From sequence record MW862804: a stretch of DNA of 44,281 bases, one strand, 5' to 3'. The position numbers and the translations under genes were made by a program. Shown here piece after piece: positions 1 to 44,281 of the stretch (position 1 is its first letter; the number at the start of each line of letters is the position of its first letter). Source of the stretch: Escherichia phage UAE_MI-01. The notes beneath the pieces were generated by a model. It was not told the origin of the DNA. It ran no database searches and saw nothing but the letters and a program-made list of their open reading frames with translations.

Positions 1-280
1 TCTGAAAGACTGGGCTTTGTCCCGCCTGTCCCGATCGGCTAAAACCCGCGGCAGCACTGGCGGGGACAGGGGTGCTGTCCCGCTTTGTCCCGCCTCATTC
101 TGTCCCGCTTTTTGTCCCGCTTAGTTTATGCAATAAAACTGCATAACTATTCACATTTTGGGGGCGGGACAGATCGGGACAGCACCCCTGTCCCGCTTTT
201 AATTTATGCAATTGTGGTGAGTAAATATGCAGTTTTAGAGGTGCGGGACAAAACGGGACGTCCCGCCTGTCCCGCTCCGT
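1..280. repeat. Noncoding module copy A (right part): 13-nt mini-hairpin TCTGAAAGACTGG, array of at least 12 GTCCCGC/GCGGGAC heptamers, palindrome TTATGCA-ataaaac-TGCATAA at 126..146
   Basis: Direct reading; heptamers at 19-25, 77-83, 87-93, 102-108, 114-120, 164-170, 190-196, 243-249, 260-266, 269-275; near-identical to 16698..16850. Confidence 0.85.
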
Positions 281-10109: not shown

Positions 10110-11495
10110 TTAGTAGAAGTCTACAGTAGGAACAGCGGCGATTGGACGAATCACAGGGAACAGGTGCGCAATAGGGTATCCCGCTGCGTCATTCATGTGG
10201 TCCACTCCTGCAGTTTTATCCGGCTCGCCTTTCTTAAGGTCGTACACCTGCTGTTCCAGACATTTCGCTAGTGTAGGGCATTTATCCAGGTTGACAAAAT
10301 ACTGGCGCACGCCCTTCGAGTTGCACATCATCGTATTCATCGCGATCAATCGGTCTTTCACAGGTGGGTTAACGCTGTCATATTCCACCTCGAAGCCAGC
10401 GTCTTCCAGTTGTGCGATATCGGACGACGACGCGTTGACCGTCTTGCGGGATTTGCCGCTGCTGTCCGGGTAAACGACAACACGACCGGCAGCACAATGA
10501 TCGGGGTAGCGCTCCTCGATCGCTTCAATCATAGCCGGGGTATCAAACAGGTCCACTAATTCATCCACGGCGTGAATCTCGTCGCGGAACTCCTTGTTCT
10601 CGGTGGTACGCTGCCGTCTTACATACACGACCGCCGCCATTTTCGTGACGTTAAAGTCCATACCGATAATCAGCGTATCTTCCGGTTGTACTTCTTCGGT
10701 GCTGGCGTTCTCCTCGCGATTGAACATCTTGTACACCGCGCCCGACGTAAGGTTAACAAACAGGCCGTTCAGGTACGCGTCGATCAGGTTAGCCGGGTAC
10801 TGACTGCGCAGCGTGTCGATAAAGTCTGCCGGTAAATGGTGGTTGTCTGTGGTCTTCGCCCGGATCAGGCGCTTTTGGCTATCCTTCTCCACCTCGAAAA
10901 TTTGGTACATCGCCCGGTAGCCTTCAGGCGTGGATACTATGACGAACTGGCGGACGAAGCCCGCACGCAGACGACCGAGCAATTTGTGATACGCCGCCAG
11001 CGCAACGTCTTGCTTCGTGGTGTCGAACTCGTCGGCAACAATCCACGCGGCGTTGACCCCGATCAGGCGAGTATAATTCTCCATTGATTCACAGATAACG
11101 CGAGTCCATTTGCCTTTCACCAGCACATTATAGATCTTGTCCTGCTTATTGAACTTCCACCGGAAGCCAGCCTCGTCAAACGCCTTTTCCAATTCCGGGT
11201 ACATGATCTTGACCAGGAGGGGAATAGTCGGCTCCGTCACAATGCCATCATGACCGGGGTTTAGTGTGAGAAGCTGGATTACCTTACGCGCAGCGACCCA
11301 CGACTTTCCGCCCCCGAAGCCGGAACACAGGCCGAGGATTTTAGTCTTCGTGTCGCGTAGTAGTTCGACCTGGTGCGGTAGGCAATCAGGCTGGTAAAGA
11401 CGCACCGCCTGCGCAACGCGTGTAGGGCGTGGCGGTCGGTTGCGCTTTGCGATCGCGCGTTCCAGTGCGCGGTGCTCTGCCGCATAGTTACGCAT
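10110..11495 (-). CDS. Terminase large subunit
   Basis: 461 aa; P-loop-like GFGGGKS near N-terminus; follows TerS-like gene with overlapping stop/start. Confidence 0.8.
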   Translation of the reverse strand: MRNYAAEHRALERAIAKRNRPPRPTRVAQAVRLYQPDCLPHQVELLRDTKTKILGLCSGFGGGKSWVAARKVIQLLTLNPGHDGIVTEPTIPLLVKIMYPELEKAFDEAGFRWKFNKQDKIYNVLVKGKWTRVICESMENYTRLIGVNAAWIVADEFDTTKQDVALAAYHKLLGRLRAGFVRQFVIVSTPEGYRAMYQIFEVEKDSQKRLIRAKTTDNHHLPADFIDTLRSQYPANLIDAYLNGLFVNLTSGAVYKMFNREENASTEEVQPEDTLIIGMDFNVTKMAAVVYVRRQRTTENKEFRDEIHAVDELVDLFDTPAMIEAIEERYPDHCAAGRVVVYPDSSGKSRKTVNASSSDIAQLEDAGFEVEYDSVNPPVKDRLIAMNTMMCNSKGVRQYFVNLDKCPTLAKCLEQQVYDLKKGEPDKTAGVDHMNDAAGYPIAHLFPVIRPIAAVPTVDFY

Positions 11496-12046
11496 TATTC
11501 GCCCTGGCCTTTGCCGGTAGGTTCCACTACGACGTCGCCGTTATCATCGTCGTCGTCATCCAGTGGGATATCGTCGCGGACTCCGTGGTTGGCTTTAAGC
11601 AGGAACGTAGCGAAGCCCGCCGCGATGGTTACGCCGCCAGCTTCCATCAGGAAAGTTTTCTGCAATTCCATAGCGTCCGCCATCGCCTCGGCGAACTCCT
11701 CATGTGCGCGCGCCCAGCGGTACAGGCAGGCAACGCCTACGCCAATTTCTGCGGCAAATCGGCCGAAGGTTGGCATTTTATTGCGCGGTATTACCTGCGC
11801 GGCCCCCTTATCAGAGTAGTTGACCTGCCAGGCTACGGCATCGGCGAAATAACGACGAAGCTGATCACAATACACAGTGCGGTAGTCGGTAGGGCGTCCG
11901 CATTTCCCGCCTTTACGGCGCTTGCCGTATTCGATCTCAGGTCCGAGATTGGTATGTTCGGTTTGCTCGCCTGGTTTACGGCGCGGGGTAACTGCGACTC
12001 GCCCGTCCAGTTTGGCGCGTCGGCCCTTAACTTTGATTTCTGCCAT
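11495..12046 (-). CDS. Terminase small subunit (putative)
   Basis: ATG 12046; basic N-terminus, HTH-like segment (FGRFAAEIGVGVACLYRWA), acidic tail; directly upstream of TerL. Confidence 0.55.
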   Translation of the reverse strand: MAEIKVKGRRAKLDGRVAVTPRRKPGEQTEHTNLGPEIEYGKRRKGGKCGRPTDYRTVYCDQLRRYFADAVAWQVNYSDKGAAQVIPRNKMPTFGRFAAEIGVGVACLYRWARAHEEFAEAMADAMELQKTFLMEAGGVTIAAGFATFLLKANHGVRDDIPLDDDDDDNGDVVVEPTGKGQGE

Positions 12047-12176
12047 GATATAAGCCCTTTTGTGCATATGCGCCGACCATCGGCAACATAGGAGACGGCC
12101 CTGCCATCTAACGGGGATTATAACAGGCACAAAAAAGCCCACCAAATCGGCAGGCTGGGGTGGTTACAGCGCTGGG

Positions 12177-13319
12177 TTACTTCAACATTTCCGGGCTAAT
12201 GGTTAAGCGTGCAACTTCGCCGTAGTTGGCGCTATAGGTAATGACGTTGGCGCTACGGCCGGACATCCAACCGCCACGACTGGCGTAGGCGTCTTTCGCT
12301 GCGAGCGTCCGGTGCTGTTCAACAATCATATTGCGAGACTCGACAATCTTCTGGTGGTGAAAATGGCCTACGTGCGCGTAGCTGTATTCGCTGGCCCCGA
12401 AAGCCTGTCTGAATTTAGAAATCATGACGGTTTCGATAGCGTCAAAGCGCGCTTTGTGCCCGTGGTGGAAGAATAGCGTGGTCTTACCGTGCTGCACCAT
12501 TTTGTAGACGTCCGGGGACGTATCCACATCGACGCGCGGCTCGTTCTCGTACAGCGTGTTGAACATCTCAGCAAGCCAAATCATGCCCGACTCATCATGA
12601 TTCCCCTGGACGATTAGCAGTTTGACTTTGTGGTGTTTTTGCAGCGCCAGTTCGACGACGTTGCGCACCATGCGAATCATGTAGCGGACAAGTTTCTGAT
12701 ATCGGGTGTCGGCGTCCAGTATGTGACCACTTGCCGGAGTGACAGCATCGAGGCTATCAAAGTGGGCCATATCACCGAGGATATTAATTACGGCAGTGCC
12801 TGCGTCCGGTGCGCGGGCGAAGGCTTCGACAAACCAGCGGTAGAACAGGTCTTCGGCGATCGCCATATCCCAGTCTTCGCCAGTCTCCTCGCCCCAGGCC
12901 AACATTCCCAGGTGGAAGTCTGACACGGTGTACAGGTTGAGCAAGTCGAGCGCCTGGATCGGGACTGGCGGGGCGTTTACTGGCGCTGCCGGTGTGATTT
13001 CGCTGTTCATACCCTCGACAACAGCGCGCATAGCTTCGAGTTGGCGCTCCTTGTCCTGCTCAGTGATAACCCACGACATGACCTCTTCGCCATTGCCGCG
13101 TACCAGGGCCGATACGCGCTTAACACCGAAGCCATCGGCAACGCGCTTGCGGATTACGGCATCGTTGCCGTGTCCAATGCCTTTTTTCGACAGGCGGGCT
13201 TTCCGCATGTAGACGTTTCGGAGGGACAAACCGTACTTCTTAGAAATCTCTTTCGATGTAGCGCCGGATTGTAATTCAGCAATCAATTGCTCGTCTGTGA
13301 TTTTAGTTTGCGGGTGCAT
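12177..13319 (-). CDS. HTH domain fused to calcineurin-like metallophosphoesterase
   Basis: ATG 13319 with AGGAAG RBS; N-terminal HTH-like segment (TSKEISKKYGLSLRNVYMRKARL); phosphoesterase motifs GDMAHFD, GNHD, HGH, GHFHH. Confidence 0.65.
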   Translation of the reverse strand: MHPQTKITDEQLIAELQSGATSKEISKKYGLSLRNVYMRKARLSKKGIGHGNDAVIRKRVADGFGVKRVSALVRGNGEEVMSWVITEQDKERQLEAMRAVVEGMNSEITPAAPVNAPPVPIQALDLLNLYTVSDFHLGMLAWGEETGEDWDMAIAEDLFYRWFVEAFARAPDAGTAVINILGDMAHFDSLDAVTPASGHILDADTRYQKLVRYMIRMVRNVVELALQKHHKVKLLIVQGNHDESGMIWLAEMFNTLYENEPRVDVDTSPDVYKMVQHGKTTLFFHHGHKARFDAIETVMISKFRQAFGASEYSYAHVGHFHHQKIVESRNMIVEQHRTLAAKDAYASRGGWMSGRSANVITYSANYGEVARLTISPEMLK

Positions 13320-13384
13320 AATTACTTCCTGATTATGGGACCGGGGACAATATATCACGGGACTTATCGAGGCGGGCAATAAAA

Positions 13385-13404
13385 AGCCCGGATAATACCG
13401 GGCT
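13385..13404. terminator. Bidirectional terminator hairpin
   Basis: AGCCCGG-ataata-CCGGGCT flanked by A5 and TTATT. Confidence 0.6.
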
Positions 13405-13411
13405 TTATTGT

Positions 13412-13579
13412 TTACGTCACGGGGTCAGATTCTTCCTGTGGCGGCGGGCTTGGCAGCTTCGCATCGAATACCCCAGCGTGGTTGATAGTATCCGCGATGA
13501 TAGCTCGCGCGCCAGGGTCTTCGGTTTTAGCCAGCGCGGCGAGCGCGTCGGCGTTATGATCAAGAATGCTTTTTAACAT
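13412..13579 (-). CDS. Small hypothetical protein (54 aa) downstream of endolysin
   Basis: ATG 13579 with GAGGAA RBS 16 nt after endolysin stop; stop just before terminator; translated by hand. Confidence 0.4.
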   Translation of the reverse strand: MLKSILDHNADALAALAKTEDPGARAIIADTINHAGVFDAKLPSPPPQEESDPVT

Positions 13580-16443: not shown

Positions 16444-16659
16444 CGTTCAGTCCTCTTGTTGGTGTGCAACCAAAATAGCAGGGTGCCAGGGTGAATGCAA
16501 CCAATATTAATCACGCGTATGAAAAAGTTGATCGCTATCTGCTGTGACTGCAAACTGCATTTCTCACCCTCCATTCTGCAACTCGCATTGGTTGCCTAGT
16601 TCATCGACGACCGCAATCCGCATCATGCTGCCGTGCGTTATGCAATCCTGGATTTTATG

Positions 16660-16850
16660 CAGTCTCAGACGAGGGGGGTGACAGACCCCCCGTCTAGTCT
16701 GAAAGACTGGGGTTTGTCCCGCTTGTCCCGCCCCCCCCCAGGCCGCGTCATCCGTGGGTGGGACGGGGTGCTGTCCCGCTTTGTCCCGCCCCTGGTCTGT
16801 CCCGCTTTTTGTCCCGCTTAGTTTATGCAGTTTTATTGCATAACTATGCA
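16660..16850. repeat. Noncoding module copy B: hairpin, mini-hairpin, GTCCCGC heptamer array (6-7 copies), C9 homopolymer, palindrome TTATGCA-gttttat-TGCATAA at 16823..16843
   Basis: Direct reading; about 85-90% identical to the junction copy over the conserved core. Confidence 0.85.
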
Positions 16851-16902
16851 CTATATTCACACTACACGGCAACCAATGCGACCGCCTAAAAGCCCATAAA
16901 AT

Positions 16903-16983
16903 GGCAACCAATGCGCGCAAAATTTAATCATTTACCGATATGGGAATTCCCATAACGGCAACCAATGCGCGCAAAATTTAATC
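16903..16983. repeat. Two 27-bp direct repeats GGCAACCAATGCGCGCAAAATTTAATC (16903..16929, 16957..16983) flanking a perfect 16-bp palindrome TATGGGAATTCCCATA (16939..16954); third partial copy at 16868..16882
   Basis: Direct reading; lies at and just beyond the 3' end of the primase gene. Confidence 0.8.
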
Positions 16984-19242
16984 TTTTAAATCGTCATCGG
17001 TCGCTGAAAGCGTGATAGGGATATCCGATTTGATGACCAAATTAGACGACCCATAGATGGCCCCGGTGTGCGGATCGGTATAGAAACCTATCACTCCGCG
17101 CTCCACCATATCGTCGATTGCCTTCGTCGAAGTGCCACCTTTTGCGAGTCCCGCCTGGCGGACGATTGCCGATTTACTGAATCCGGTATGGTCCGGGTTA
17201 TCTTCCATCAGTTTTTCCAGTGCCGCATAAAGCACTTTCTCTTTTTCATTGCGCGGTCCGGCGGTGTTCTCTTCCTTAACTGCGGCCTTGCCTGCTGCCT
17301 TCGCCTGTTCGATGGCGAACGGTGCCAGGGCAACCGGTACAAGATACAGCGTCTCATCGCGCGGGGTGGATGCAATCGGCTTGACGTCCCAACCGGCAAC
17401 CACATCTCCGAAGTCTGGCCCGGTGCTGGTGGACTGGTGTGCCTCGAACGCTTCTGACTTGCGGAGATCCACCTTAACTTTGCACTTGAGCAGGACGAAG
17501 CCGCGCGGCGCTTGCTTGATGCCGTTACGTGACTTTTCGTGATACAGGTTCAATTGTCCGGGCTGGTTGTCGTCCGGCTGTTCCAGGAAGAAAGCGGAAT
17601 CGACAGCACCATGCAGCGCGCCGGACCCGCGTGGGGTTCTGCTGCCGTTTGCACCTTTCGCCGGGTGGTGAATGACGCCCGCACTGCCACCTGTGTTTTC
17701 CGCGATGGCCTTCAGAGCTTTGACCACTTCGCCCATATCGCTGGCGTTGTTCTCGTCGAACGGTTTAGCATCGGCGGACCGCAACGCAACCGTCTGGTTG
17801 AGTGAGTCGAACGCCACCAGGCCAACCGGCTCGCCGTTAGCGGTGCGGTTGATAAAGCTGATAACTTCACGCAAGCCAGATTTGCTGGTGATATCCCAGC
17901 CGCGGGATTGCAGATCGATAATGTGCAGCTTGTCCAGGTCGTGCTCGTATTTAATCTGCAATGCTTCTTTACGCTGGTTGGAGGCTTCACCACCTTCCGC
18001 GTCGAAATAGAAGCAATGAGACTGGACGACCTTCGCACCGCCGAACGGGATCCCTGCGGCAACCGCGCCCATTTGGCCCAGCACATAGAAAGACTTACCG
18101 ATATTCGACTCACCCGCCATGTACCAGGTCGATTTAAAGTTAATCAACCCCTCGATAATCGGGTCGTGCTTACTGAACAGCGCGACCGGCTCGTTATCCA
18201 GATCCGCATCGGTGCACACGCCGTATTCTTCGCCGTCGCCAACCGCATCAACAATATGTTCGTATAAGGATTCGACTTCCTCGTCGTCCAGCCCCGGAAG
18301 GATGGCGGCGATTTGCTTGCGCGACATGTTGTGTGGCTCGACGTTCAGGTGGTCCGGGATCCCGATAAGACGCAGCGCCAGGTGCTGGTGTCTGTTCAGT
18401 TCCGAGCAACACTCGTTGCCGGTGTGCATACACTTGAAACGGATCTCGCCATCCTTGACCATAATGGCGGTGGACCCTTCGCCGCTGTGCAGATGTTCGT
18501 TCGGGCACGGCACTTCATAACCGCGACCGGAAGATAACTCCTCGAATCCTGCCTGGAAGCACCAGTCCAGAATGCCGTCTGCCACTGCGTCGTCGCCCTG
18601 GGTCAGTTCGCGGCGGACTTCCTCTTTCTCAACTCCCAGCTTGTCCGCCAGGCGGAGCAGACGACGGACGCGGGCGCGCTTGCCATAGTGGCATTTAATA
18701 ACAGACTGCTGGTGTGGCAGGTACATCAGGCGGTTTGTGTCTTTCGTGCAGTCGTCGAAGTCCACATCTGACAGGCCCAGTTGGTGTAATAGCGCATACT
18801 GGACACGGCCCAGGTCTTCAGCCGGTACAGGCTTGTCAGTGAGTACCAGGAATCGAGCGCAACGCGTGCCGCCTTTCAGTGGGTGACGGTCGCCGGTTGT
18901 GGTGTGGAAGACGTGCTCCAGCCCCGCGTCAGTGAACGCCTTACGGCAACGGCGTAAAGTGCGGGTGTCGGTGCGGTCAATATCGAAGAACAGGATCGAG
19001 CGGTCCACCGCACTGGTCTTACGACGCAATCCGTCACTGGTATACGCCACGATGCCGTCGGCCTTACGCTTGCGGCGCGCATACTCGGCTTTATCTTCTG
19101 TCTTGTTGATATGCACCGAGGAGATTTCTTTCGCATCTTTGATAAATTCGAAAAATTCATCGGTGGTCATCTGGAAGTTTTCCGCCCTGGCTTTTTCGCC
19201 TTTTTTAGCGGGTCTTGTTACAGCGAATTTAATTAAGCTCAT
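16978..19242 (-). CDS. Bifunctional primase-polymerase / P-loop (RecA/DnaB-like) replicative NTPase
   Basis: 754 aa; N-terminal FFDIDR-type primase-polymerase motif, Cys/His zinc-binding cluster, Walker A GESNIGKS in C-terminal half. Confidence 0.7.
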   Translation of the reverse strand: MSLIKFAVTRPAKKGEKARAENFQMTTDEFFEFIKDAKEISSVHINKTEDKAEYARRKRKADGIVAYTSDGLRRKTSAVDRSILFFDIDRTDTRTLRRCRKAFTDAGLEHVFHTTTGDRHPLKGGTRCARFLVLTDKPVPAEDLGRVQYALLHQLGLSDVDFDDCTKDTNRLMYLPHQQSVIKCHYGKRARVRRLLRLADKLGVEKEEVRRELTQGDDAVADGILDWCFQAGFEELSSGRGYEVPCPNEHLHSGEGSTAIMVKDGEIRFKCMHTGNECCSELNRHQHLALRLIGIPDHLNVEPHNMSRKQIAAILPGLDDEEVESLYEHIVDAVGDGEEYGVCTDADLDNEPVALFSKHDPIIEGLINFKSTWYMAGESNIGKSFYVLGQMGAVAAGIPFGGAKVVQSHCFYFDAEGGEASNQRKEALQIKYEHDLDKLHIIDLQSRGWDITSKSGLREVISFINRTANGEPVGLVAFDSLNQTVALRSADAKPFDENNASDMGEVVKALKAIAENTGGSAGVIHHPAKGANGSRTPRGSGALHGAVDSAFFLEQPDDNQPGQLNLYHEKSRNGIKQAPRGFVLLKCKVKVDLRKSEAFEAHQSTSTGPDFGDVVAGWDVKPIASTPRDETLYLVPVALAPFAIEQAKAAGKAAVKEENTAGPRNEKEKVLYAALEKLMEDNPDHTGFSKSAIVRQAGLAKGGTSTKAIDDMVERGVIGFYTDPHTGAIYGSSNLVIKSDIPITLSATDDDLKD

Positions 19243-19252
19243 TGCCGTGGCC

Positions 19253-19582
19253 TTACTTAGAAGTTTTATTATTGCGTACCCAGGAGCGCACTGTGCTCTG
19301 ATTAATCCCAGTCAACTCGGCAATCATCGCCCATGATTTGCCCTCGGCGCGCAAACGGATAACCTGCTTTTTGTATTCTTCCATTTCTTCATTGTGCTTC
19401 TGCAGCTTGCTTGCTGCCGTGCCGTTGAGCAATTCCAGCCTGGCGCGTAATTCTTTTTCTACACTGCGCAGACGTTCAATCTCAAATAGCACCGCCCCCA
19501 CGGCATCGGTATACGCCCATGACCGGCTTGTCTCACTGCAAACAGTCTTCGTTAACATTTCGATTGCGTCGTTGATATTCAT
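19253..19582 (-). CDS. HTH DNA-binding regulator (putative)
   Basis: 109 aa; coiled-coil middle, C-terminal HTH-like segment (KSWAMIAELTGINQSTVRSWVRN); palindrome GTTGGT-taatga-ACCAAC 14 nt upstream of its start. Confidence 0.5.
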   Translation of the reverse strand: MNINDAIEMLTKTVCSETSRSWAYTDAVGAVLFEIERLRSVEKELRARLELLNGTAASKLQKHNEEMEEYKKQVIRLRAEGKSWAMIAELTGINQSTVRSWVRNNKTSK

Positions 19583-19984: not shown

Positions 19985-20527
19985 ATGTTTGAACAAATCG
20001 TAAACCTGATCACTCGCGGCGTAGTAGCACTGGAAATCATCGCTAAACATTATGAAACCGTTGGCGCTGCCGTAGACCCAAAAGCAAACGGCACTGCTAA
20101 GAAAGGCAAGGCCAAGCCAGATACTGAAGTCGAAGACGACGACGATCAGGACGAAGTCGAAGATACGCCTAAAACGAAAAAAGGCGCGGCAAAAGAAACC
20201 AAGTCTAAAGGTAAGGCCAAAAAAGAAGTCGTAGAAGATGACGACGACGATGACGCCGATGACGTGAAGCCAGCGAAGGGTAAAAAAGCTCCGGCGAAAG
20301 GCAAAGGCAAGAAAGATGCCGATCCGCTGGCAGAGATGCGCGACGAGATCAAACAGTATGCCGCTATTATCGCTGGTGGTGACGACGACGATGCCAACGA
20401 CGAATTCGACGACCTGCTGGAAGCGTTCGAGATCAAATCAATCGCCAAGCTGGAAGATGACGACGTCGAAGACTTCCACAAAGACCTGAAAGAAATCGTC
20501 GAAACCTATTTCGAATTGGAAGATTAA
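19985..20527 (+). CDS. Highly charged early protein with alternating Lys-rich and Asp/Glu-rich blocks
   Basis: ATG 19985 with GGAGAT RBS; first gene of the plus-strand operon; followed by terminator. Confidence 0.55.
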   Translation: MFEQIVNLITRGVVALEIIAKHYETVGAAVDPKANGTAKKGKAKPDTEVEDDDDQDEVEDTPKTKKGAAKETKSKGKAKKEVVEDDDDDDADDVKPAKGKKAPAKGKGKKDADPLAEMRDEIKQYAAIIAGGDDDDANDEFDDLLEAFEIKSIAKLEDDDVEDFHKDLKEIVETYFELED

Positions 20528-22770: not shown

Positions 22771-23556
22771 ATGGCTAAAGTCAACCTGAAAAATGTGCGC
22801 GTATGTTTCCTGAAAATTTGGGAACGTGATACCCCTAAACAGGACGGACAAAAACCGGCATACCGCGCCGTGATTCTTCTTGATAAAGAAGATCCGCAGG
22901 TGGACAAAGTGGAAGCGGCAGCGCGCGCAGTGCTCACCGACAAGCTGAAATCCGAGAAGAATGCCGATAAGTGGATGGACCGCCACTACGCCCAGGATTC
23001 TAAGGAATGTGCAGTTCGCGACGGCGACGAGCGCGATGAAGTAACCGAAGAATTCGAAGGAATGTTGTACATCAACGCTAAATCGTTCAAACAGCCAAAC
23101 ATCCAAACGTCACTCGGCGAGAAGCAGACCGAACAGGGTCTGACCGTAGAAGGCGACGAAATCGAAGGCCAGGAGATCTACTCCGGTTGTTATTGCAATG
23201 TGTCACTGGATATTTGGGCGTGGAACAACACCAACGGCAAGGGACTCGGTGCTGGACTGCTGGGTTTACGCTTCCGTGATGACGGTGAAGCCTTCGGCGG
23301 TGGCGGATCTTCGTGCTCCGATGAAGACCTGGACAACGACGACGAAGATGAAAGCCCGCGCAAGTCCAAAAAGTCAAAACGTCGTGATGACGATGACGAA
23401 GACGACAAGCCGCGCAAGTCCAAAAAGTCCAAGCGCCGCGATGACGACGATGATGACGAAGACGAGAAACCTCGTAAACGTCGTAAGCCACGCGATGACG
23501 AAGATGATGAGGACGACGACGAAGACGAAGCACCACGCAAACGTCGCCGCCGTTAA
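22771..23556 (+). CDS. ssDNA-binding protein-like (DUF2815-type, putative) with C-terminal basic/acidic repeats
   Basis: ATG 22771 with GAGGAA RBS; synteny between DUF2800-like nuclease and PolA; C-terminus built from 54-63-nt tandem DNA repeats. Confidence 0.4.
   Translation: MAKVNLKNVRVCFLKIWERDTPKQDGQKPAYRAVILLDKEDPQVDKVEAAARAVLTDKLKSEKNADKWMDRHYAQDSKECAVRDGDERDEVTEEFEGMLYINAKSFKQPNIQTSLGEKQTEQGLTVEGDEIEGQEIYSGCYCNVSLDIWAWNNTNGKGLGAGLLGLRFRDDGEAFGGGGSSCSDEDLDNDDEDESPRKSKKSKRRDDDDEDDKPRKSKKSKRRDDDDDDEDEKPRKRRKPRDDEDDEDDDEDEAPRKRRRR
23356..23556 (+). repeat. Imperfect tandem coding repeats (54, 60 and 63 nt) encoding PRKSKKSKRRDDDD(E/D)n units
   Basis: Direct reading. Confidence 0.8.
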
Positions 23557-32401: not shown

Positions 32402-34018
32402 TTATTTACCTTCCAGCTTCTCCACTTTATGCAACAGGTGGACGAAGGCGGCACACAGATCCATCAACAGCACGTTACTATCCAAAGACAGCACATCGTC
32501 GGTATACCCGATCTCCTTGCGGTCGACTACAACCTCATTCCCTTCCTCGTCCACCCCCTTGACGTCCTCATAAATGGCGTAACCCGGCAGCAAATGCACG
32601 TATTCTGGGTCGATCCTTGCCAGGTCCTGCGCGATAAGGCCGTATCGCTGTACGTCCGACTCCTTATACTTGAACATTGCCGGAAGCCATTGGCGAACGC
32701 GGTTGTAGCTTTCCTCGCCGTCTGTGTATTGGATTTCTTTTTTAAGGTCGCGGTCCGATAGCGGCGCTTTCTGGAACTCGTTAACCGACGGGTTGCCGCT
32801 GTTACCGCTAATAAGCCTTTGGTCTGGCAAGAAGCGGAATAGCGCCTCAGTCACACCATTCTTCCACACATGGACGCGGTAGTCTGATACGTGTGTATCC
32901 CCACCCCTTACCAGGCCCGCGCGCGTCCAGTCCGCATACCACCTATACATCGTATGCCCAACCCAGCTATCAATCCCGTATAAAGCGTTTGACAGACTTA
33001 GCCCGTTAGCCTCTAGGGGCGCTAACTCTACTGAACTGCCGCCATTCAGGTGCAGCGCACCTAACTTAACTAAACTATCCTCGCCGACCCCAAGATTAGT
33101 GCGCGCAGCGGCTACAGTAGTCGCCCCTGTTCCGCCCTTGGTGATAGGCACTGTGTTCTCCGTAGCGACAGACCCCAAACCTAGATTTGAGCGTGCCGCC
33201 GATTGATCTGCTACGTCTGCCAGGTTCTGAGACGTCTTCATGAATTGCGTAGGGTCGATCGCGTTTTTGAAGTCTTCTGCTTCGTCCCGATACCCTTTCG
33301 CGGCATCTCTGGCGGCTTGCGCGTCAGTCTTCGCCGTATTGGCCTGGTCCCGAATAATGCCGGTATCCGTCCTGATCTGATTCGTCTGGTCCTTGATGGC
33401 TTGCGTATCGGCCTTAATCTGATTCGTCTGCGTCTTGATGGTGTTGGTGGCGTCGTGGATCGCCTGCGTATCGGCCTTGATTTGGTCGGTCTGCGTCTTG
33501 ATGGTATTGGCATCGTTCTTGAAGCCTTCGGCCTCATTGCGAAATCCTTGCGCGGCTGCTTCAGACGCGGCGGCTTGTTGTTGTAGGTTGCGCATCTCCA
33601 CCGGGTCGATCTGCTTCATTAGCTGCGACAGATATCCCCATGACATGCCCTGCATAACCTGCCCGTTAGGTAACGTCACTGTGATTTCTTCAGCGTCGCC
33701 AAAGATTGCACGCCAGTTGTTTTCGTCAGCGATCATCAAGCGCAACGCTTTTTGGGCCTGTACTGTTACGCCCATCGTTGCCAGAGACATGGTATCGCGC
33801 TTAACGCCATCCCACGCGAGGCCAGTTGCCGTGGGGCCGTCGAACGGCAGCACAAGCGTAAGCGCGGTGTCGCTTTCTATGGACGCGATTGCCACGGTGT
33901 ATGGGACTTGCCCTACCACCAACGTTAAGAAGTCGCCAGATGCAAACGCGGTAAACGTCGTGCCTACCCCGACAACCGCCTTGCTGTTATTCGTTACGGA
34001 TAGTGTACCCGCTGCCAT
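32402..34018 (-). CDS. Tail fibre protein with coiled-coil repeats and C-terminal intramolecular chaperone (peptidase S74-like) domain
   Basis: ATG 34018 with GAGGA RBS; repeated IKTQTDQIKADTQAI heptad-like units; C-terminal SDRDLKKEI ... GLIAQDL segment characteristic of auto-cleaving fibre chaperone domains. Confidence 0.65.
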   Translation of the reverse strand: MAAGTLSVTNNSKAVVGVGTTFTAFASGDFLTLVVGQVPYTVAIASIESDTALTLVLPFDGPTATGLAWDGVKRDTMSLATMGVTVQAQKALRLMIADENNWRAIFGDAEEITVTLPNGQVMQGMSWGYLSQLMKQIDPVEMRNLQQQAAASEAAAQGFRNEAEGFKNDANTIKTQTDQIKADTQAIHDATNTIKTQTNQIKADTQAIKDQTNQIRTDTGIIRDQANTAKTDAQAARDAAKGYRDEAEDFKNAIDPTQFMKTSQNLADVADQSAARSNLGLGSVATENTVPITKGGTGATTVAAARTNLGVGEDSLVKLGALHLNGGSSVELAPLEANGLSLSNALYGIDSWVGHTMYRWYADWTRAGLVRGGDTHVSDYRVHVWKNGVTEALFRFLPDQRLISGNSGNPSVNEFQKAPLSDRDLKKEIQYTDGEESYNRVRQWLPAMFKYKESDVQRYGLIAQDLARIDPEYVHLLPGYAIYEDVKGVDEEGNEVVVDRKEIGYTDDVLSLDSNVLLMDLCAAFVHLLHKVEKLEGK

Positions 34019-34098
34019 AGCTGAATCCTCATAAATTGGTTGCAATCCAGGTCGAGCGGTGTAATACTAAAACTCAACCAAATATAGGGGATGATACC

Positions 34099-34317
34099 AT
34101 GAAAACCTTAATTATGATTTGTGCGGTTCTTTTGTCCGGTTGCGCCAACATGCCGTCTAAAATCTGCGACGCGACATATGTTAATAGCGGCATGGAATAC
34201 TCGGTCCCGGTGTTCGGTGTTGCCGATTTTAGTGGGCATAAAATGCTGCGGGCGGGCTACCCGTTCAACTTCCGGTATGTTTCGGTAGACCACTTCAAAA
34301 GCACCACTTGCAAATAA
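34099..34317 (+). CDS. Small outer-membrane lipoprotein, Cor/Llp-like superinfection exclusion candidate
   Basis: Signal peptide with lipobox LLSGC; 72 aa; divergently oriented inside the tail fibre region; own RBS and terminator. Confidence 0.45.
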   Translation: MKTLIMICAVLLSGCANMPSKICDATYVNSGMEYSVPVFGVADFSGHKMLRAGYPFNFRYVSVDHFKSTTCK

Positions 34318-40903: not shown

Positions 40904-41499
40904 CTTACAAATCCAATAGCAGTCTTAAGGGTGGCGGATACAGTTGCCGTGTGGTGCCCGTTGTCTGTGTATGACAAGCTCGAACGCTCGACCACGAATA
41001 AACCTGTTTCGCCATCCGGGGCGGTGACGACAAACGGCTTGACGAAGTGCCCGCGAAGGAAGTTGTAAACCAGTTTAGGGTTGCACCATTTGTCAGTAGT
41101 CAGTCCGACGAATTGCACAGGGAACTGTTTCGTTTCGGCGTTCGGGCCGTCCGCGATGTTCTGCCCGTAGCCATTACCAAATTGCAATTCCTCCGACCGG
41201 AAAGCCAACTGCACGTCGCCGCCGCCCTGCAATTGCATGTGCCAGTAATAGGGCCATTCGTTTGATCGCGGGTCGTGTGCTTCGATTAGCTCATATGCCG
41301 CACCGGATTTCGTCGGACCGGCCCAGTTATCTTTCAGTGTAATGACCGTGTTCGAGTTGAACGCCGCAATTTTGCCGGTGTAGTCGTTGCCGTCGATGCG
41401 GGCGAATACGAGTACCTTCCCGATCTCGCTAAGGAACGCCGTTCCCGCGCCTGTAACGGTCTTACTTCCTTTCGTTAGTGTGATTGTACCTTGTGACAT
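40900..41499 (-). CDS. Minor tail protein M-like
   Basis: ATG 41499 with GGGGG RBS; synteny directly after TMP. Confidence 0.55.
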   Translation of the reverse strand: MSQGTITLTKGSKTVTGAGTAFLSEIGKVLVFARIDGNDYTGKIAAFNSNTVITLKDNWAGPTKSGAAYELIEAHDPRSNEWPYYWHMQLQGGGDVQLAFRSEELQFGNGYGQNIADGPNAETKQFPVQFVGLTTDKWCNPKLVYNFLRGHFVKPFVVTAPDGETGLFVVERSSLSYTDNGHHTATVSATLKTAIGFVR

Positions 41500-44177: not shown

Positions 44178-44245
44178 TATGCAGTCCCCCTTTTTATGCA
44201 GTTGCCGTCGGTTATTGTATCAGCGAATTTAAAACAAACCTTATT

Positions 44246-44281
44246 CAGTCTCAGACGAGGGGGGCCATTGACCCCGTCTAG
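44246..44281. repeat. Noncoding module copy A (left part): conserved hairpin CAGTCTCAGACGAGGGGGG-loop-CCCCGTCTAG, continuous with window position 1
   Basis: Matches 16660..16697 (same stem, different loop); window end plus window start reproduces the contiguous internal copy. Confidence 0.85.

Follow-up and report, generated by a model that had tools for sequence, protein, structure and literature searches.

Mycobacteriophage A10ZJ24 encodes a metallophosphoesterase, gp48, that is made early, degrades host DNA through phosphodiesterase and DNase activity, and blunts defence (PMC12287305). It sets a precedent for the function proposed below: like the phosphoesterase described here, gp48 of this actinophage (Cluster A) is a stand-alone enzyme carrying all five motifs of the superfamily, but its motif I begins at residue 10 and it is without an N-terminal helix-turn-helix (HTH). 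By structure, the nearest relatives of the catalytic core are the Mre11/SbcD enzymes, a nuclease group that takes in T4 gp47. Serine/threonine phosphatases of the PPP family carry the signatures GDxVDRG and GNHE. For the repeat arrays found elsewhere in the same genome, the known comparison systems are the P4 alpha protein with ori/crr and the pri-rep-ori of SaPI/PICI elements.

Gene Position and Predicted Transcription Unit

The window analyzed, 44,281 nucleotides of Escherichia phage UAE_MI-01 (sequence record MW862804), is a complete genome of a Dhillonvirus, an HK578/JL1-like coliphage. A minus-strand open reading frame (ORF) spanning 12177..13379, with the lysis cassette on one side and the terminase genes on the other, encodes the HTH-metallophosphoesterase. 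This is an already known, standard annotated gene of Dhillonviruses, and the present copy is unexceptional, the gene being very common in phages and annotated in hundreds of genomes. Its place directly upstream of TerS (11498–12046) and TerL (10113–11495), pointed out in a preliminary description of the sequence, agrees with our coordinates. The start given there, 13379, does not: the TTG at that position is only the mechanical limit of the ORF, and translation begins with the ATG at 13319. The gene and its flanking signals are as follows:

13381..13406, minus strand: upstream intrinsic terminator found by scan, taken to end the lysis/orf55 transcript
13349..13357, minus strand: candidate sigma-70 extended −10 element, TGaTATATT, from conservation in 10 Dhillonviruses
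13325..13330, minus strand: ribosome-binding site AGGAAG, 5 nt ahead of the ATG, read from the sequence
12180..13319, minus strand: HTH-metallophosphoesterase coding sequence, 380 aa, from the ORF list and the sequence; relatives are annotated with the same ATG
12177–12179, minus strand: stop codon of the gene
12126..12156, minus strand: downstream terminator-like hairpin with a T-run, located ahead of TerS and found by scan

Both of the terminator-like hairpins earlier said to bracket the gene were detected. The upstream one (13406–13383; −17.6 kcal/mol, z −4.99) is followed by UUUUU and is present in 4 of 10 aligned Dhillonvirus relatives, while the downstream one (12156–12136) reaches −13 kcal/mol but a z of only −1.1 and is followed by UUUUUU. 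Across the 10 Dhillonviruses, GTG(R)TATATT is invariant between variable flanks, as is the GGAA of the ribosome-binding site; the candidate −10 element was not picked up by a two-hexamer promoter scan. Judged from this succession of terminator, candidate extended −10 promoter, ribosome-binding site, coding sequence and terminator, the phosphoesterase gene appears to be a transcription unit of its own.

Protein Architecture and Fold

The product carries the sequences VSDFHLG, GDMAHFD, GNHD, HHGH and GHFHH. An AlphaFold2 model (pLDDT 83) and the conserved motifs delimit the following regions:

13185..13295, minus strand: N-terminal three-helix HTH, residues 9–45 (AlphaFold2 helices 9–17, 22–29 and 33–45)
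13008..13130, minus strand: conserved beta-hairpin and helix, residues 64–104 (AlphaFold2 strands 64–73 and 79–88, helix 90–104)
12180..12959, minus strand: metallophosphoesterase catalytic domain, residues 121–380

The putative recognition helix in the AlphaFold2 model comprises residues 33–45. Pfam HTH families matched among 81 family members were HTH_1 (36), HTH_50 (24), HTH_8 (11) and Sigma70_r4_2 (8), and GerE also matches family members. For this protein itself, NCBIfam gave only weak UhpA and Lrp HTH hints, and a comparison of the family profile with PDB sequences returned GerE at E = 0.3, only a hint of a LuxR-like HTH. The beta-hairpin region has the family motif PDGFxVKGxSTL...G...QWVK, with G63, K67, S70, G77, W83 and V84 invariant or nearly so in family alignments.

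The catalytic domain contains D134xH136, GD183xxH186, GN240H241D, H285H286GH288 and GH319xH321, that is, all five motifs of the calcineurin-like metallophosphoesterase superfamily (DxH, GD, GNH(D/E), H, GHxH), to which the protein belongs. Residues D134, H136, D183, N240, H241, H286, H319 and H321 are invariant in alignments of 40 and 81 members, and the Pfam Metallophos score (20.0 bits against a cut-off of 21.5) falls formally just under gathering. The fusion of an HTH to a calcineurin-type phosphoesterase, previously proposed from the sequence, is borne out by the AlphaFold2 HTH, the Pfam matches and the full set of motifs.

As to whether the fold is closer to SbcD/Mre11 or to Ser/Thr phosphatases, the nearest matches are Mre11/SbcD: about 185–190 residues align to Mre11/SbcD chains of 319–386 residues. 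Unlike these enzymes, the protein has an N-terminal HTH and a beta-hairpin. It appears to be without a capping or Rad50-binding region, the phosphoesterase core extending to its last residue, 380. Searches of PDB sequences with phmmer and with the family profile found neither Mre11/SbcD nor any other significant sequence relative; membership of a characterized nuclease family is not demonstrable by sequence. Two designed repeat proteins that appeared as PDB hits by protein sequence were rejected as spurious, their scores being summed from 4–6-bit stretches. A BFVD fold search returned only uncharacterized phage phosphoesterases, some of them named “DNA polymerase II small subunit”.

Family Distribution and Genomic Context

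The protein matches PHROG 704 over its full length (E = 3.9e-160, residues 5–380 against profile positions 2–390 of 390), a very large, phage-specific family labeled “DNA repair exonuclease” with members in Dhillonvirus, Jerseyvirus, Kagunavirus, Drexlerviridae and other phages, including JL1 gp03, HK578 gp59, EP23 p56 and SETP13 AGX84627. There was also a partial match to the PHROG 284 “exonuclease” (E = 1.2e-13). Clustering at 50% identity gives 4,633 family clusters, of which 1,126 reach E ≤ 1e-30, and homologues are carried by 2,078 phage records. Identity to this protein is 94–99.5% in Dhillonvirus, ~75% in Jerseyvirus and ~43% in Webervirus. These relatives share the layout of HTH, beta-hairpin and phosphoesterase and all catalytic residues, and differ between genera only in genomic position, with nothing substantive otherwise. 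A functional study of PHROG 704 HTH-phosphoesterases was not found in the searchable literature. Genome papers merely name a “phosphoesterase”, and the RAZR paper mentioning SECphi18, considered as a source on the gene, concerns the portal protein instead. With upwards of 4,600 clusters at the 50% identity level, a presence in more than 2,000 sequenced phages and an intact active site, PHROG 704 is a family in which assigning a function would annotate thousands of genes.

The neighborhood of the gene changes from lineage to lineage. In LIMEzero the order is DNA polymerase, 5'-3' exonuclease, endonuclease VII, phosphoesterase and Pnk (polynucleotide kinase); in Drexlerviridae, Dam methyltransferase, phosphoesterase, Pnk with a dNMP kinase, and lysis genes; and in DSS3-P1, phosphoesterase, DNA methylase and HD hydrolase. 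A Vibrio phage has an OB-fold protein followed by the phosphoesterase, and metagenomic phages carry it near RecA_dep_nuc, NinG, lysis and terminase genes. The contexts of the phosphoesterase elsewhere are DNA-metabolism or accessory positions. Adjacency to the terminase recurs in some phages and is absent in Jerseyvirus, Drexlerviridae and LIMEzero.

GTCCC Cluster at the Promoter

Upstream of the gene lies a group of short motifs:

13337..13363, minus strand: GTCCC cluster, consisting of GTCCCG (13363–13358), GTCCCC (13348–13343) and GTCCC (13341–13337)

With the real start at the ATG at 13319, these motifs fall in the promoter and 5'UTR and hence outside the gene; together they straddle the −10 element as well as the predicted start of transcription. 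The preliminary description had reported three GTCCCG-type motifs near the start and equated them with the heptamer of the arrays. The triplet is indeed unusual, being the only cluster of three same-strand GTCCC in 27 bp outside the arrays in the genome and occurring in 0 of 300 Markov-1 simulations, but only one of the three (13363–13358) is an exact GTCCCG. The equation with the array motif failed on several counts. The GTCCCGC heptamer was absent from a sequence scan of 13300–13420, each site is two mismatches away from the array consensus TGTCCCGC, a level at which matches occur 10.8 times per kb, and the sites are spaced by 15 and 7 bp as against 9–12 bp in the arrays. They also vary among relatives: among the 10 Dhillonviruses, the first site is GGACCG six times, GTACCG once and GTCCCA once, and GTCC[C/G/A/T]CGGTCC is freely variable at its middle base. 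No covariation of the HTH with these upstream-site variants was seen in the same 10 phages, in which the recognition helix is invariant. The triplet simply overlaps the gene's own promoter and transcription start and is not the TGTCCCGC array motif. For the promoter-proximal element GTCCNCGGTCC, a second exact copy was not found in the genome and the two copies with one mismatch are at chance level; having no further copies beyond chance, the element defines no regulon.

Arrays and the Primase-Helicase

The arrays themselves are located outside the phosphoesterase unit:

16716..16817, plus strand: TGTCCCGC array B, adjoining the primase-helicase gene (16978–19242, minus strand); putative origin iterons
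19..275, plus strand: TGTCCCGC array A, with 13 GTCCCG

Array A is placed between the tail-chaperone genes and the start of the tape-measure gene (44179), and JL1 has an array at the matching position. In unrelated IMG/VR contigs, a primase-helicase homologue accompanied TGTCCCGC arrays at 23 of 44 loci versus 1 of 44 controls, and at 21 of these 23 loci the helicase ORF had its 3' end between −225 and +54 bp relative to the array. A phosphoesterase homologue was encoded at one array locus, and the other 43 (loci of up to ~15 kb each) were without it. Conversely, the complete genomes of Jerseyvirus SETP13, Bas71 and Webervirus KLPPOU149 contain no arrays, with at most two GTCCCG per 300 bp, despite homologues that are 43–75% identical. 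Phosphoesterase and arrays thus do not co-occur consistently across the genomes and loci compared.

As in P4 and SaPI, the repeats are octamers that occur both as direct and as inverted copies; they lie just downstream of a primase-helicase gene and have a second, distant copy, and this layout recurs in at least 21 unrelated contigs. Unlike the P4 alpha protein (D5/SF3 type), the helicase core here is AAA_25 (RepA/DnaB-like), and the repeat unit is TGTCCCGC. This arrangement suggests that the TGTCCCGC arrays are iterons of a primase-helicase replication origin. Their presence beside primase-helicase genes in many unrelated contigs re-assigns the modules to a putative origin function, which gives a concrete, testable candidate origin for Dhillonviruses, and the phosphoesterase gene is not to be treated as a regulator of the heptamer modules.

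These data bear on two ways in which the HTH might act in regulation. The first follows the preliminary description, which saw a candidate heptamer-binding factor: the protein would bind the GTCCCGC arrays of the two duplicated modules and act there as a regulator or nuclease. A DNA-binding-type HTH, the statistically unusual triple GTCCC at its own promoter and an array-bearing foreign contig (L061) with a homologue ~4.7 kb away speak for this proposal; the missing heptamer, the background frequency and different spacing of the upstream sites, their variation opposite an invariant recognition helix, the homologues in genomes free of arrays and the association of the arrays with the primase-helicase speak against it, and we regard it as very improbable. 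The other possibility is confined to autoregulation, with the HTH binding a private GTCC-N-CGGTCC over the −10 element and transcription start and repressing its own promoter. Here, the invariant −10 is directly followed by GTCCnCGGTCC in 8 of 10 Dhillonviruses, six relatives add an upstream GGACCG to form GGACCG-N15-CGGTCC around the −10, the element has its single exact copy at this promoter, and the cluster is non-random. In the window, TheodorHerzl and YD-2008.s, however, the upstream arm has disappeared or changed its orientation with the recognition helix unaltered, the Jerseyvirus and Drexlerviridae homologues have no comparable upstream element, and the conservation may merely reflect promoter and 5'UTR function. 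Autoregulation of this kind is unlikely; it is compatible with the enzymatic function proposed below.

Proposed Function

We propose, at a probability of roughly 0.6, that the protein is a DNA phosphodiesterase that depends on metal ions, either a nuclease or an enzyme that processes ends, tethered by its HTH and serving phage DNA metabolism, and that the arrays belong to the primase-helicase origin. The N-terminal HTH would hold the phosphoesterase on DNA, where the two-metal core would cleave DNA phosphodiesters as a nuclease or in end processing. Its biological role may be the breakdown of host or competitor DNA, or the trimming of replication and recombination intermediates. The enzyme would act without a Rad50/SbcC partner; a Rad50/SbcC/gp46 gene is not annotated in the JL1 genome or beside homologues in other phages. 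In favor of the proposal stand the invariant catalytic residues and the modeled fold, the contexts of the gene elsewhere and the gp48 precedent; the lack of an annotated partner in JL1 and the failure to place the protein in a characterized nuclease family by sequence count against it.

Three other activities were weighed against this DNA phosphodiesterase. The position of the gene directly upstream of TerS/TerL would suit a packaging accessory, a nuclease aiding the terminase by pac cleavage or by concatemer debranching or trimming in the manner of the HNH partner of HK97-type terminases. An unrelated phage whose terminase is of the lambda Nu1/GpA type likewise has the gene upstream of TerS/TerL, and in two other contigs it shares a stretch with lysis and terminase genes, ~3.5–4.7 kb from the terminase. 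Neither adjacency nor co-transcription is conserved, however: beyond this genome and one unrelated contig, the gene is distant from the terminase in Jerseyvirus, Bas71, Webervirus and LIMEzero. The 75%-identical Jerseyvirus homologue is ~13 kb away, on the opposite strand and inside the tail genes, the Webervirus homologue ~16 kb from TerS, and that of LIMEzero amid DNA polymerase, exonuclease and endonuclease VII genes. Moreover, a terminator-like hairpin stands between this gene and TerS, an RNaseH-like nuclease domain is already part of TerL, and an hhalign comparison of the family with the neighboring TerS showed no relation (probability 0.3%), all of which makes a packaging role quite unlikely.

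Somewhat less remote, though still unlikely, is end healing, in which a 3'-phosphate/2',3'-cyclic-phosphate esterase would join with a polynucleotide kinase in mending DNA or RNA ends that host defence nucleases have cut; the model is the metallophosphoesterase module of Clostridium thermocellum Pnkp. In Webervirus the next gene encodes a Pnk of kinase-only size (~163–167 aa), in LIMEzero one is close by, and generic small phosphodiesterases are close structural matches. Against end healing, the annotations of Dhillonvirus, Jerseyvirus and Warwickvirus include no Pnk, the fold is matched best by Mre11/SbcD, and an HTH suggests duplex DNA as the target, not RNA ends. The Pnk neighbor in two lineages fits an end-healing role no less well than a nuclease role. 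We consider it highly improbable that the substrate is something other than nucleic acid, as it would be for a Ser/Thr phosphatase of the lambda-PPase type or a phosphodiesterase directed against cyclic-nucleotide immune signals. Membership of the calcineurin-like superfamily and the Ser/Thr phosphatase annotation of some records would allow it, but motifs II and III read GDMAH and GNHD, not GDxVDRG and GNHE, and neither the PPP signatures nor a PPP-like fold was found. There was no match to a PADLOC or anti-defence family, and such an enzyme leaves the conserved fused HTH unexplained.

A bolder extension of the DNA phosphodiesterase reading, which we offer tentatively and at low probability, is that the family might form an unrecognized class of Rad50-independent, DNA-tethered phage nucleases, which the host RNAP would transcribe from promoters of their own at accessory positions and which would destroy the DNA of the host or of competing phages. 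Such positions would be the gap between lysis and terminase genes, an islet within the tail genes, or a site next to an integrase. The nucleases could feed nucleotide salvage, blunt defence and spare the phage's own methylated DNA, and the Dhillonvirus enzyme might in addition be autoregulated through its private GTCC-N-CGGTCC.

Gene Boundaries and Genomic Position

The gene order of the 44,281-base window is that of a complete Dhillonvirus genome, as compared to the annotation of the relative JL1, and the 2.8-kb surroundings of the phosphoesterase gene share 91–94% identity with many Escherichia Dhillonviruses (NHEP3, JL1, HK578, EP23). The minus strand reads primase-helicase, small genes, holins, endolysin, a 55-codon ORF, the phosphoesterase gene, TerS, TerL and portal, confirming the position beside the terminase genes given in the preliminary description. 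The ORF delimited there (12177..13379) is present, but the TTG at its head merely marks the mechanical limit of the reading frame. An ATG at 13319, with AGGAAG ahead of it, is the true start, and the resulting 380 aa protein has the same length as its annotated relatives. Terminator-like hairpins were indeed found on both sides of the gene:

13406–13383, minus strand: upstream terminator-like hairpin, strong (-17.6 kcal/mol, z -5.0), then U5
12156–12136, minus strand: downstream terminator-like hairpin, weaker (-13 kcal/mol, z -1.1), then U6

In the upstream alignment, the endolysin–phosphoesterase interval (upstream of window position 13380) is a hot spot of recombination in Dhillonviruses: the window and some relatives carry the 55-codon ORF and terminator only, while others have an extra segment of ~145 bp or an ORF with an Ig domain (Big_2; HK578, L-h 1M, WFI).

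Protein Family and Predicted Structure

Over its full length, the phosphoesterase belongs to PHROG 704 ("DNA repair exonuclease", E = 3.9e-160), with only weak matches to the Pfam Metallophos models. The family comprises 4,633 representatives at 50% identity (1,126 at E ≤ 1e-30), and homologues were found in 2,078 phage records. Identity is ~75% to Jerseyvirus and Kagunavirus proteins and 43–47% to those of Drexlerviridae, with lower-identity homologues in LIMEzero and in Vibrio, Ruegeria, Alteromonas, Rhizobium and Campylobacter phages; among solved structures, no sequence-level relative was found. The gene is an ordinary, already annotated member of a large uncharacterised phage family.

The proposed HTH-metallophosphoesterase fusion is real. 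An AlphaFold2 model built with 81 homologues (pLDDT 83) comprises the following parts:

Residues 9–45: three-helix HTH
Residues 64–88: long beta-hairpin
Residues 90–104: helix
Residues 121–380: phosphoesterase sandwich

Pfam DNA-binding HTH models matched many family members as well (HTH_1 in 36, HTH_50 in 24, HTH_8 in 11, Sigma70_r4_2 in 8 and GerE in 6 of the 81 members). The motifs GDMAHFD, GNHD, HHGH and GHFHH, listed from the sequence earlier, are all present, with VSDFHLG in addition. Eight residues (D134, H136, D183, N240, H241, H286, H319 and H321) are invariant in forty diverse full-length members, and a segment between the HTH and the catalytic core, PDGFxVKGxSTL...G...QWVK, is strikingly conserved.

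Putative Promoter Region and GTCCC Cluster

The preliminary description placed three GTCCCG-type motifs near the gene start and equated them with the array heptamer. The cluster itself stands, with one of its sites reading GTCCCG, and lies upstream of the true start:

13363–13358, minus strand: GTCCCG
13357–13349, minus strand: candidate extended -10 promoter element TGnTATATT, invariant in ten Dhillonviruses
13348–13343, minus strand: GTCCCC
13341–13337, minus strand: GTCCC

Three same-strand GTCCC in 27 bp are unusual: this is the sole such cluster outside the arrays, and 300 Markov-1 simulations of the genome with its arrays masked yielded no comparable one. The equation with the heptamer had to be abandoned, since GTCCCGC does not occur in the upstream region and each site has two differences from the array unit, the 8-mer TGTCCCGC (such matches occur at 10.8 per kb). 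The site spacings are 15 and 7 bp, versus 9–12 bp between paired units in the arrays, and the sites vary among relatives.

We aligned ~120 bp before the start codon from ten Dhillonviruses. The invariant block consists of GTG(R)TATATTGTCC and the RBS. At the first GTCCCG site, six relatives have GGACCG, one has GTACCG and another GTCCCA, and in GTCC[C/G/A/T]CGGTCC all four bases were found at the middle position. Because the -10 element and RBS are invariant while the GTCCCG sites vary, the conserved feature is, judging from this alignment, a putative sigma-70-type promoter with a private GTCC-containing sequence at the predicted transcription start, not the array motif. This private element has no second exact copy genome-wide, and its one-mismatch copies are at chance level.

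GTCCCGC Arrays and the Primase-Helicase

JL1 carries arrays at the same two places as the window (array A, 19–275; array B, 16716–16817). An IMG/VR scan for TGTCCCGC-N1-5-TGTCCCGC returned at least 120 loci. Among the matches listed, we took 44 non-Dhillonvirus loci with at least 7 GTCCCG within 300 bp, each of at most ~15 kb, and as controls 44 loci with no more than 3 motifs, i.e., chance matches. Of the proteins encoded in the window, only the primase-helicase (16978–19242), whose helicase core is Pfam AAA_25, had homologues in many of the array loci: an iterated profile of its helicase part detected a homologue in 23/44, versus 1/44 controls, among the matches listed. In 21 of these 23, the array lies at -225 to +54 bp from the 3' end of the helicase ORF; the remaining two arrays lie at +466 bp and about -2 kb (the latter a weak match). 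A KAFxRA...G(V/L)I motif is common to the C-termini of the array-locus helicases, and the helicase of the window shows a weak alignment to it. A phosphoesterase homologue was found in one of the 44 array loci (L061), among the matches listed and within loci of at most ~15 kb. With arrays absent from the complete SETP13, Bas71 and KLPPOU149 genomes, all three of which encode the phosphoesterase, and with the helicase fitting the arrays better among the matches listed, the earlier proposal of the phosphoesterase as array-binding factor is not supported.

In the window, putative iterons and then an AT-rich stretch follow the primase-helicase gene, and a second copy lies at a distance. The pri-rep-ori arrangement is classical in SaPI/PICI and in P4 ori/crr, which have the same primase-helicase and iteron layout. 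Because of this match, the arrays are best read as origin iterons (a probability of roughly 0.75). The TGTCCCGC arrays would belong to a pri-helicase/iteron type of origin module that seems widespread and whose 8-mer is unusually conserved, and the array A module may be a second origin or a crr-like enhancer.

Several further features of the arrays were recorded. Dozens of unrelated IMG/VR contigs (GC 48–70%; loci L018–L137) contain 7–17 GTCCCG in 300 bp. Array A, in the larger of the two modules (1–290 with 44241–44281), occupies a non-coding gap of ~380 bp (44180–44281 plus 1–~280). This gap, also present in JL1 (33888–34274), separates the tail-assembly-chaperone genes from the tape-measure start (44179, minus strand) and is an odd location for an element of replication or regulation. 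Between array B and the primase-helicase stop (16866–16983) lie three copies of GGCAACCAATGCG, two extended to GGCAACCAATGCGCGCAAAATTTAATC, the last overlapping the stop; they add another type of repeat to the putative origin. At least eight copies of TTATGCA(A/G)T, partly palindromic (TTATGCA-N7-TGCATAA), occur in or beside both modules (126–232, 16630–16850, 44186–44203). Immediately downstream of the arrays, this motif makes up promoter-like pairs on the plus strand, TTTATG-N17-TAT(G/T)CA, directed antisense to the genes on either side. Both modules bear at the corresponding edge (16668–16697, 44254–44281) a G/C-rich hairpin (GACGAGGGGGG...CCCCCCGTC) and then TCTGAAAGACTGGG; lacking a T-run, the hairpin is not a typical intrinsic terminator.

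Homologue Contexts and Possible Function

The phosphoesterase is only loosely tied to the terminase. In Jerseyvirus SETP13 and in Bas71, a 73–75% identical homologue lies in a small opposite-strand islet within the tail genes; a good TTGCAT-N17-TATTAT promoter and the gene of a small membrane protein precede it, and the terminase is ~13 kb away. In Webervirus and Warwickvirus, the order is Dam methyltransferase, phosphoesterase and lysis cassette, and the Webervirus gene is ~16 kb from TerS. In LIMEzero, the gene sits amid those for DNA polymerase, 5'-3' exonuclease, endonuclease VII and Pnk. In DSS3-P1, the gene adjoins those for a DNA methylase and an HD hydrolase, and in a Vibrio phage the gene before it encodes an OB-fold protein. 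In eight metagenomic contexts, its neighbours are lysis genes, terminases of three types (GpA, Terminase_3, Sf6-type TerS), NinG, RecA_dep_nuc or NusG-like genes or an integrase, or it comes after tail-fibre genes. Overall, the gene occupies module boundaries and accessory positions, often near the lysis cassette and frequently with its own predicted transcription.

Among side observations, the SETP13 homologue (comparison locus L004, 13003–15002) has a near-consensus promoter and a moron-like layout with co-transcription of a small two-pass membrane protein, and Bas71 (L005, 11983–13864) has the Jerseyvirus-type opposite-strand islet inside its tail cluster. In Drexlerviridae, a tiny hydrophobic ORF of ~25 codons (e.g., MRYIAILFTAILFTIAIFNYAIQLG) lies directly 5' of the phosphoesterase gene (L003, 3229–3306; L017, 1490–1564).

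Our literature searches found no functional work on the PHROG 704 HTH-phosphoesterase family, and the function of this large family is where the remaining interest of the gene lies. With GDxxH as motif II and GNHD as motif III, the sequence has signatures of the Mre11 type rather than the PPP type; of the two folds that the preliminary description asked to separate, the core is Mre11/SbcD-like and not Ser/Thr phosphatase-like, and a role as protein phosphatase or signal phosphodiesterase is very improbable. The protein combines a complete active site, a DNA-binding-type HTH and this core; its gene is predicted to be transcribed as a unit of its own and occurs in accessory positions or among genes of DNA metabolism. 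We infer that it would be a metal-dependent DNA nuclease or end-processing enzyme independent of Rad50. A stand-alone mycobacteriophage metallophosphoesterase, made early and degrading host DNA (PMC12287305), offers a functional precedent, but lacks the HTH.

Other roles can be set beside that of a DNA nuclease or end-processing enzyme. Autoregulation, with the HTH-phosphoesterase acting at its own promoter, seems doubtful: HTH and upstream sites showed no co-variation among the ten Dhillonviruses, changes in residues 1–73 were confined to helix 2 and the turn, and the recognition helix (residues 33–45) is invariant though the upstream sites differ. Assistance to the terminase in packaging would suit the gene order of the window and is distinctly unlikely; by hhalign the family is unrelated to TerS, and TerL has its own nuclease domain. 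End-healing as a partner of Pnk is also unlikely; in its favour, Pnk of kinase-only size and a dNMP kinase lie between phosphoesterase and lysis cassette in Webervirus, and a Pnk gene is close by in LIMEzero.

Additional Features of the Genome

The first gene of the leftward operon (19253–19582, minus strand) encodes a 109-aa protein, a "transposase" in the JL1 annotation, whose C-terminal HTH matches HTH_23, HTH_28 and Sigma70_r4_2 (E about 1e-6 to 1e-7). This protein, too, is a candidate regulator of the phage. Coding repeats at 20102–20480 and 23330–23550 give two early plus-strand proteins long acidic (D/E) runs alternating with K/R-rich stretches. At 33363–33530 and 41111–41231, there are 21/42-nt periodic repeats inside a tail gene region of the minus strand and five AATTGCA in 120 bp; the AATTGCA cluster is present in JL1 as well.
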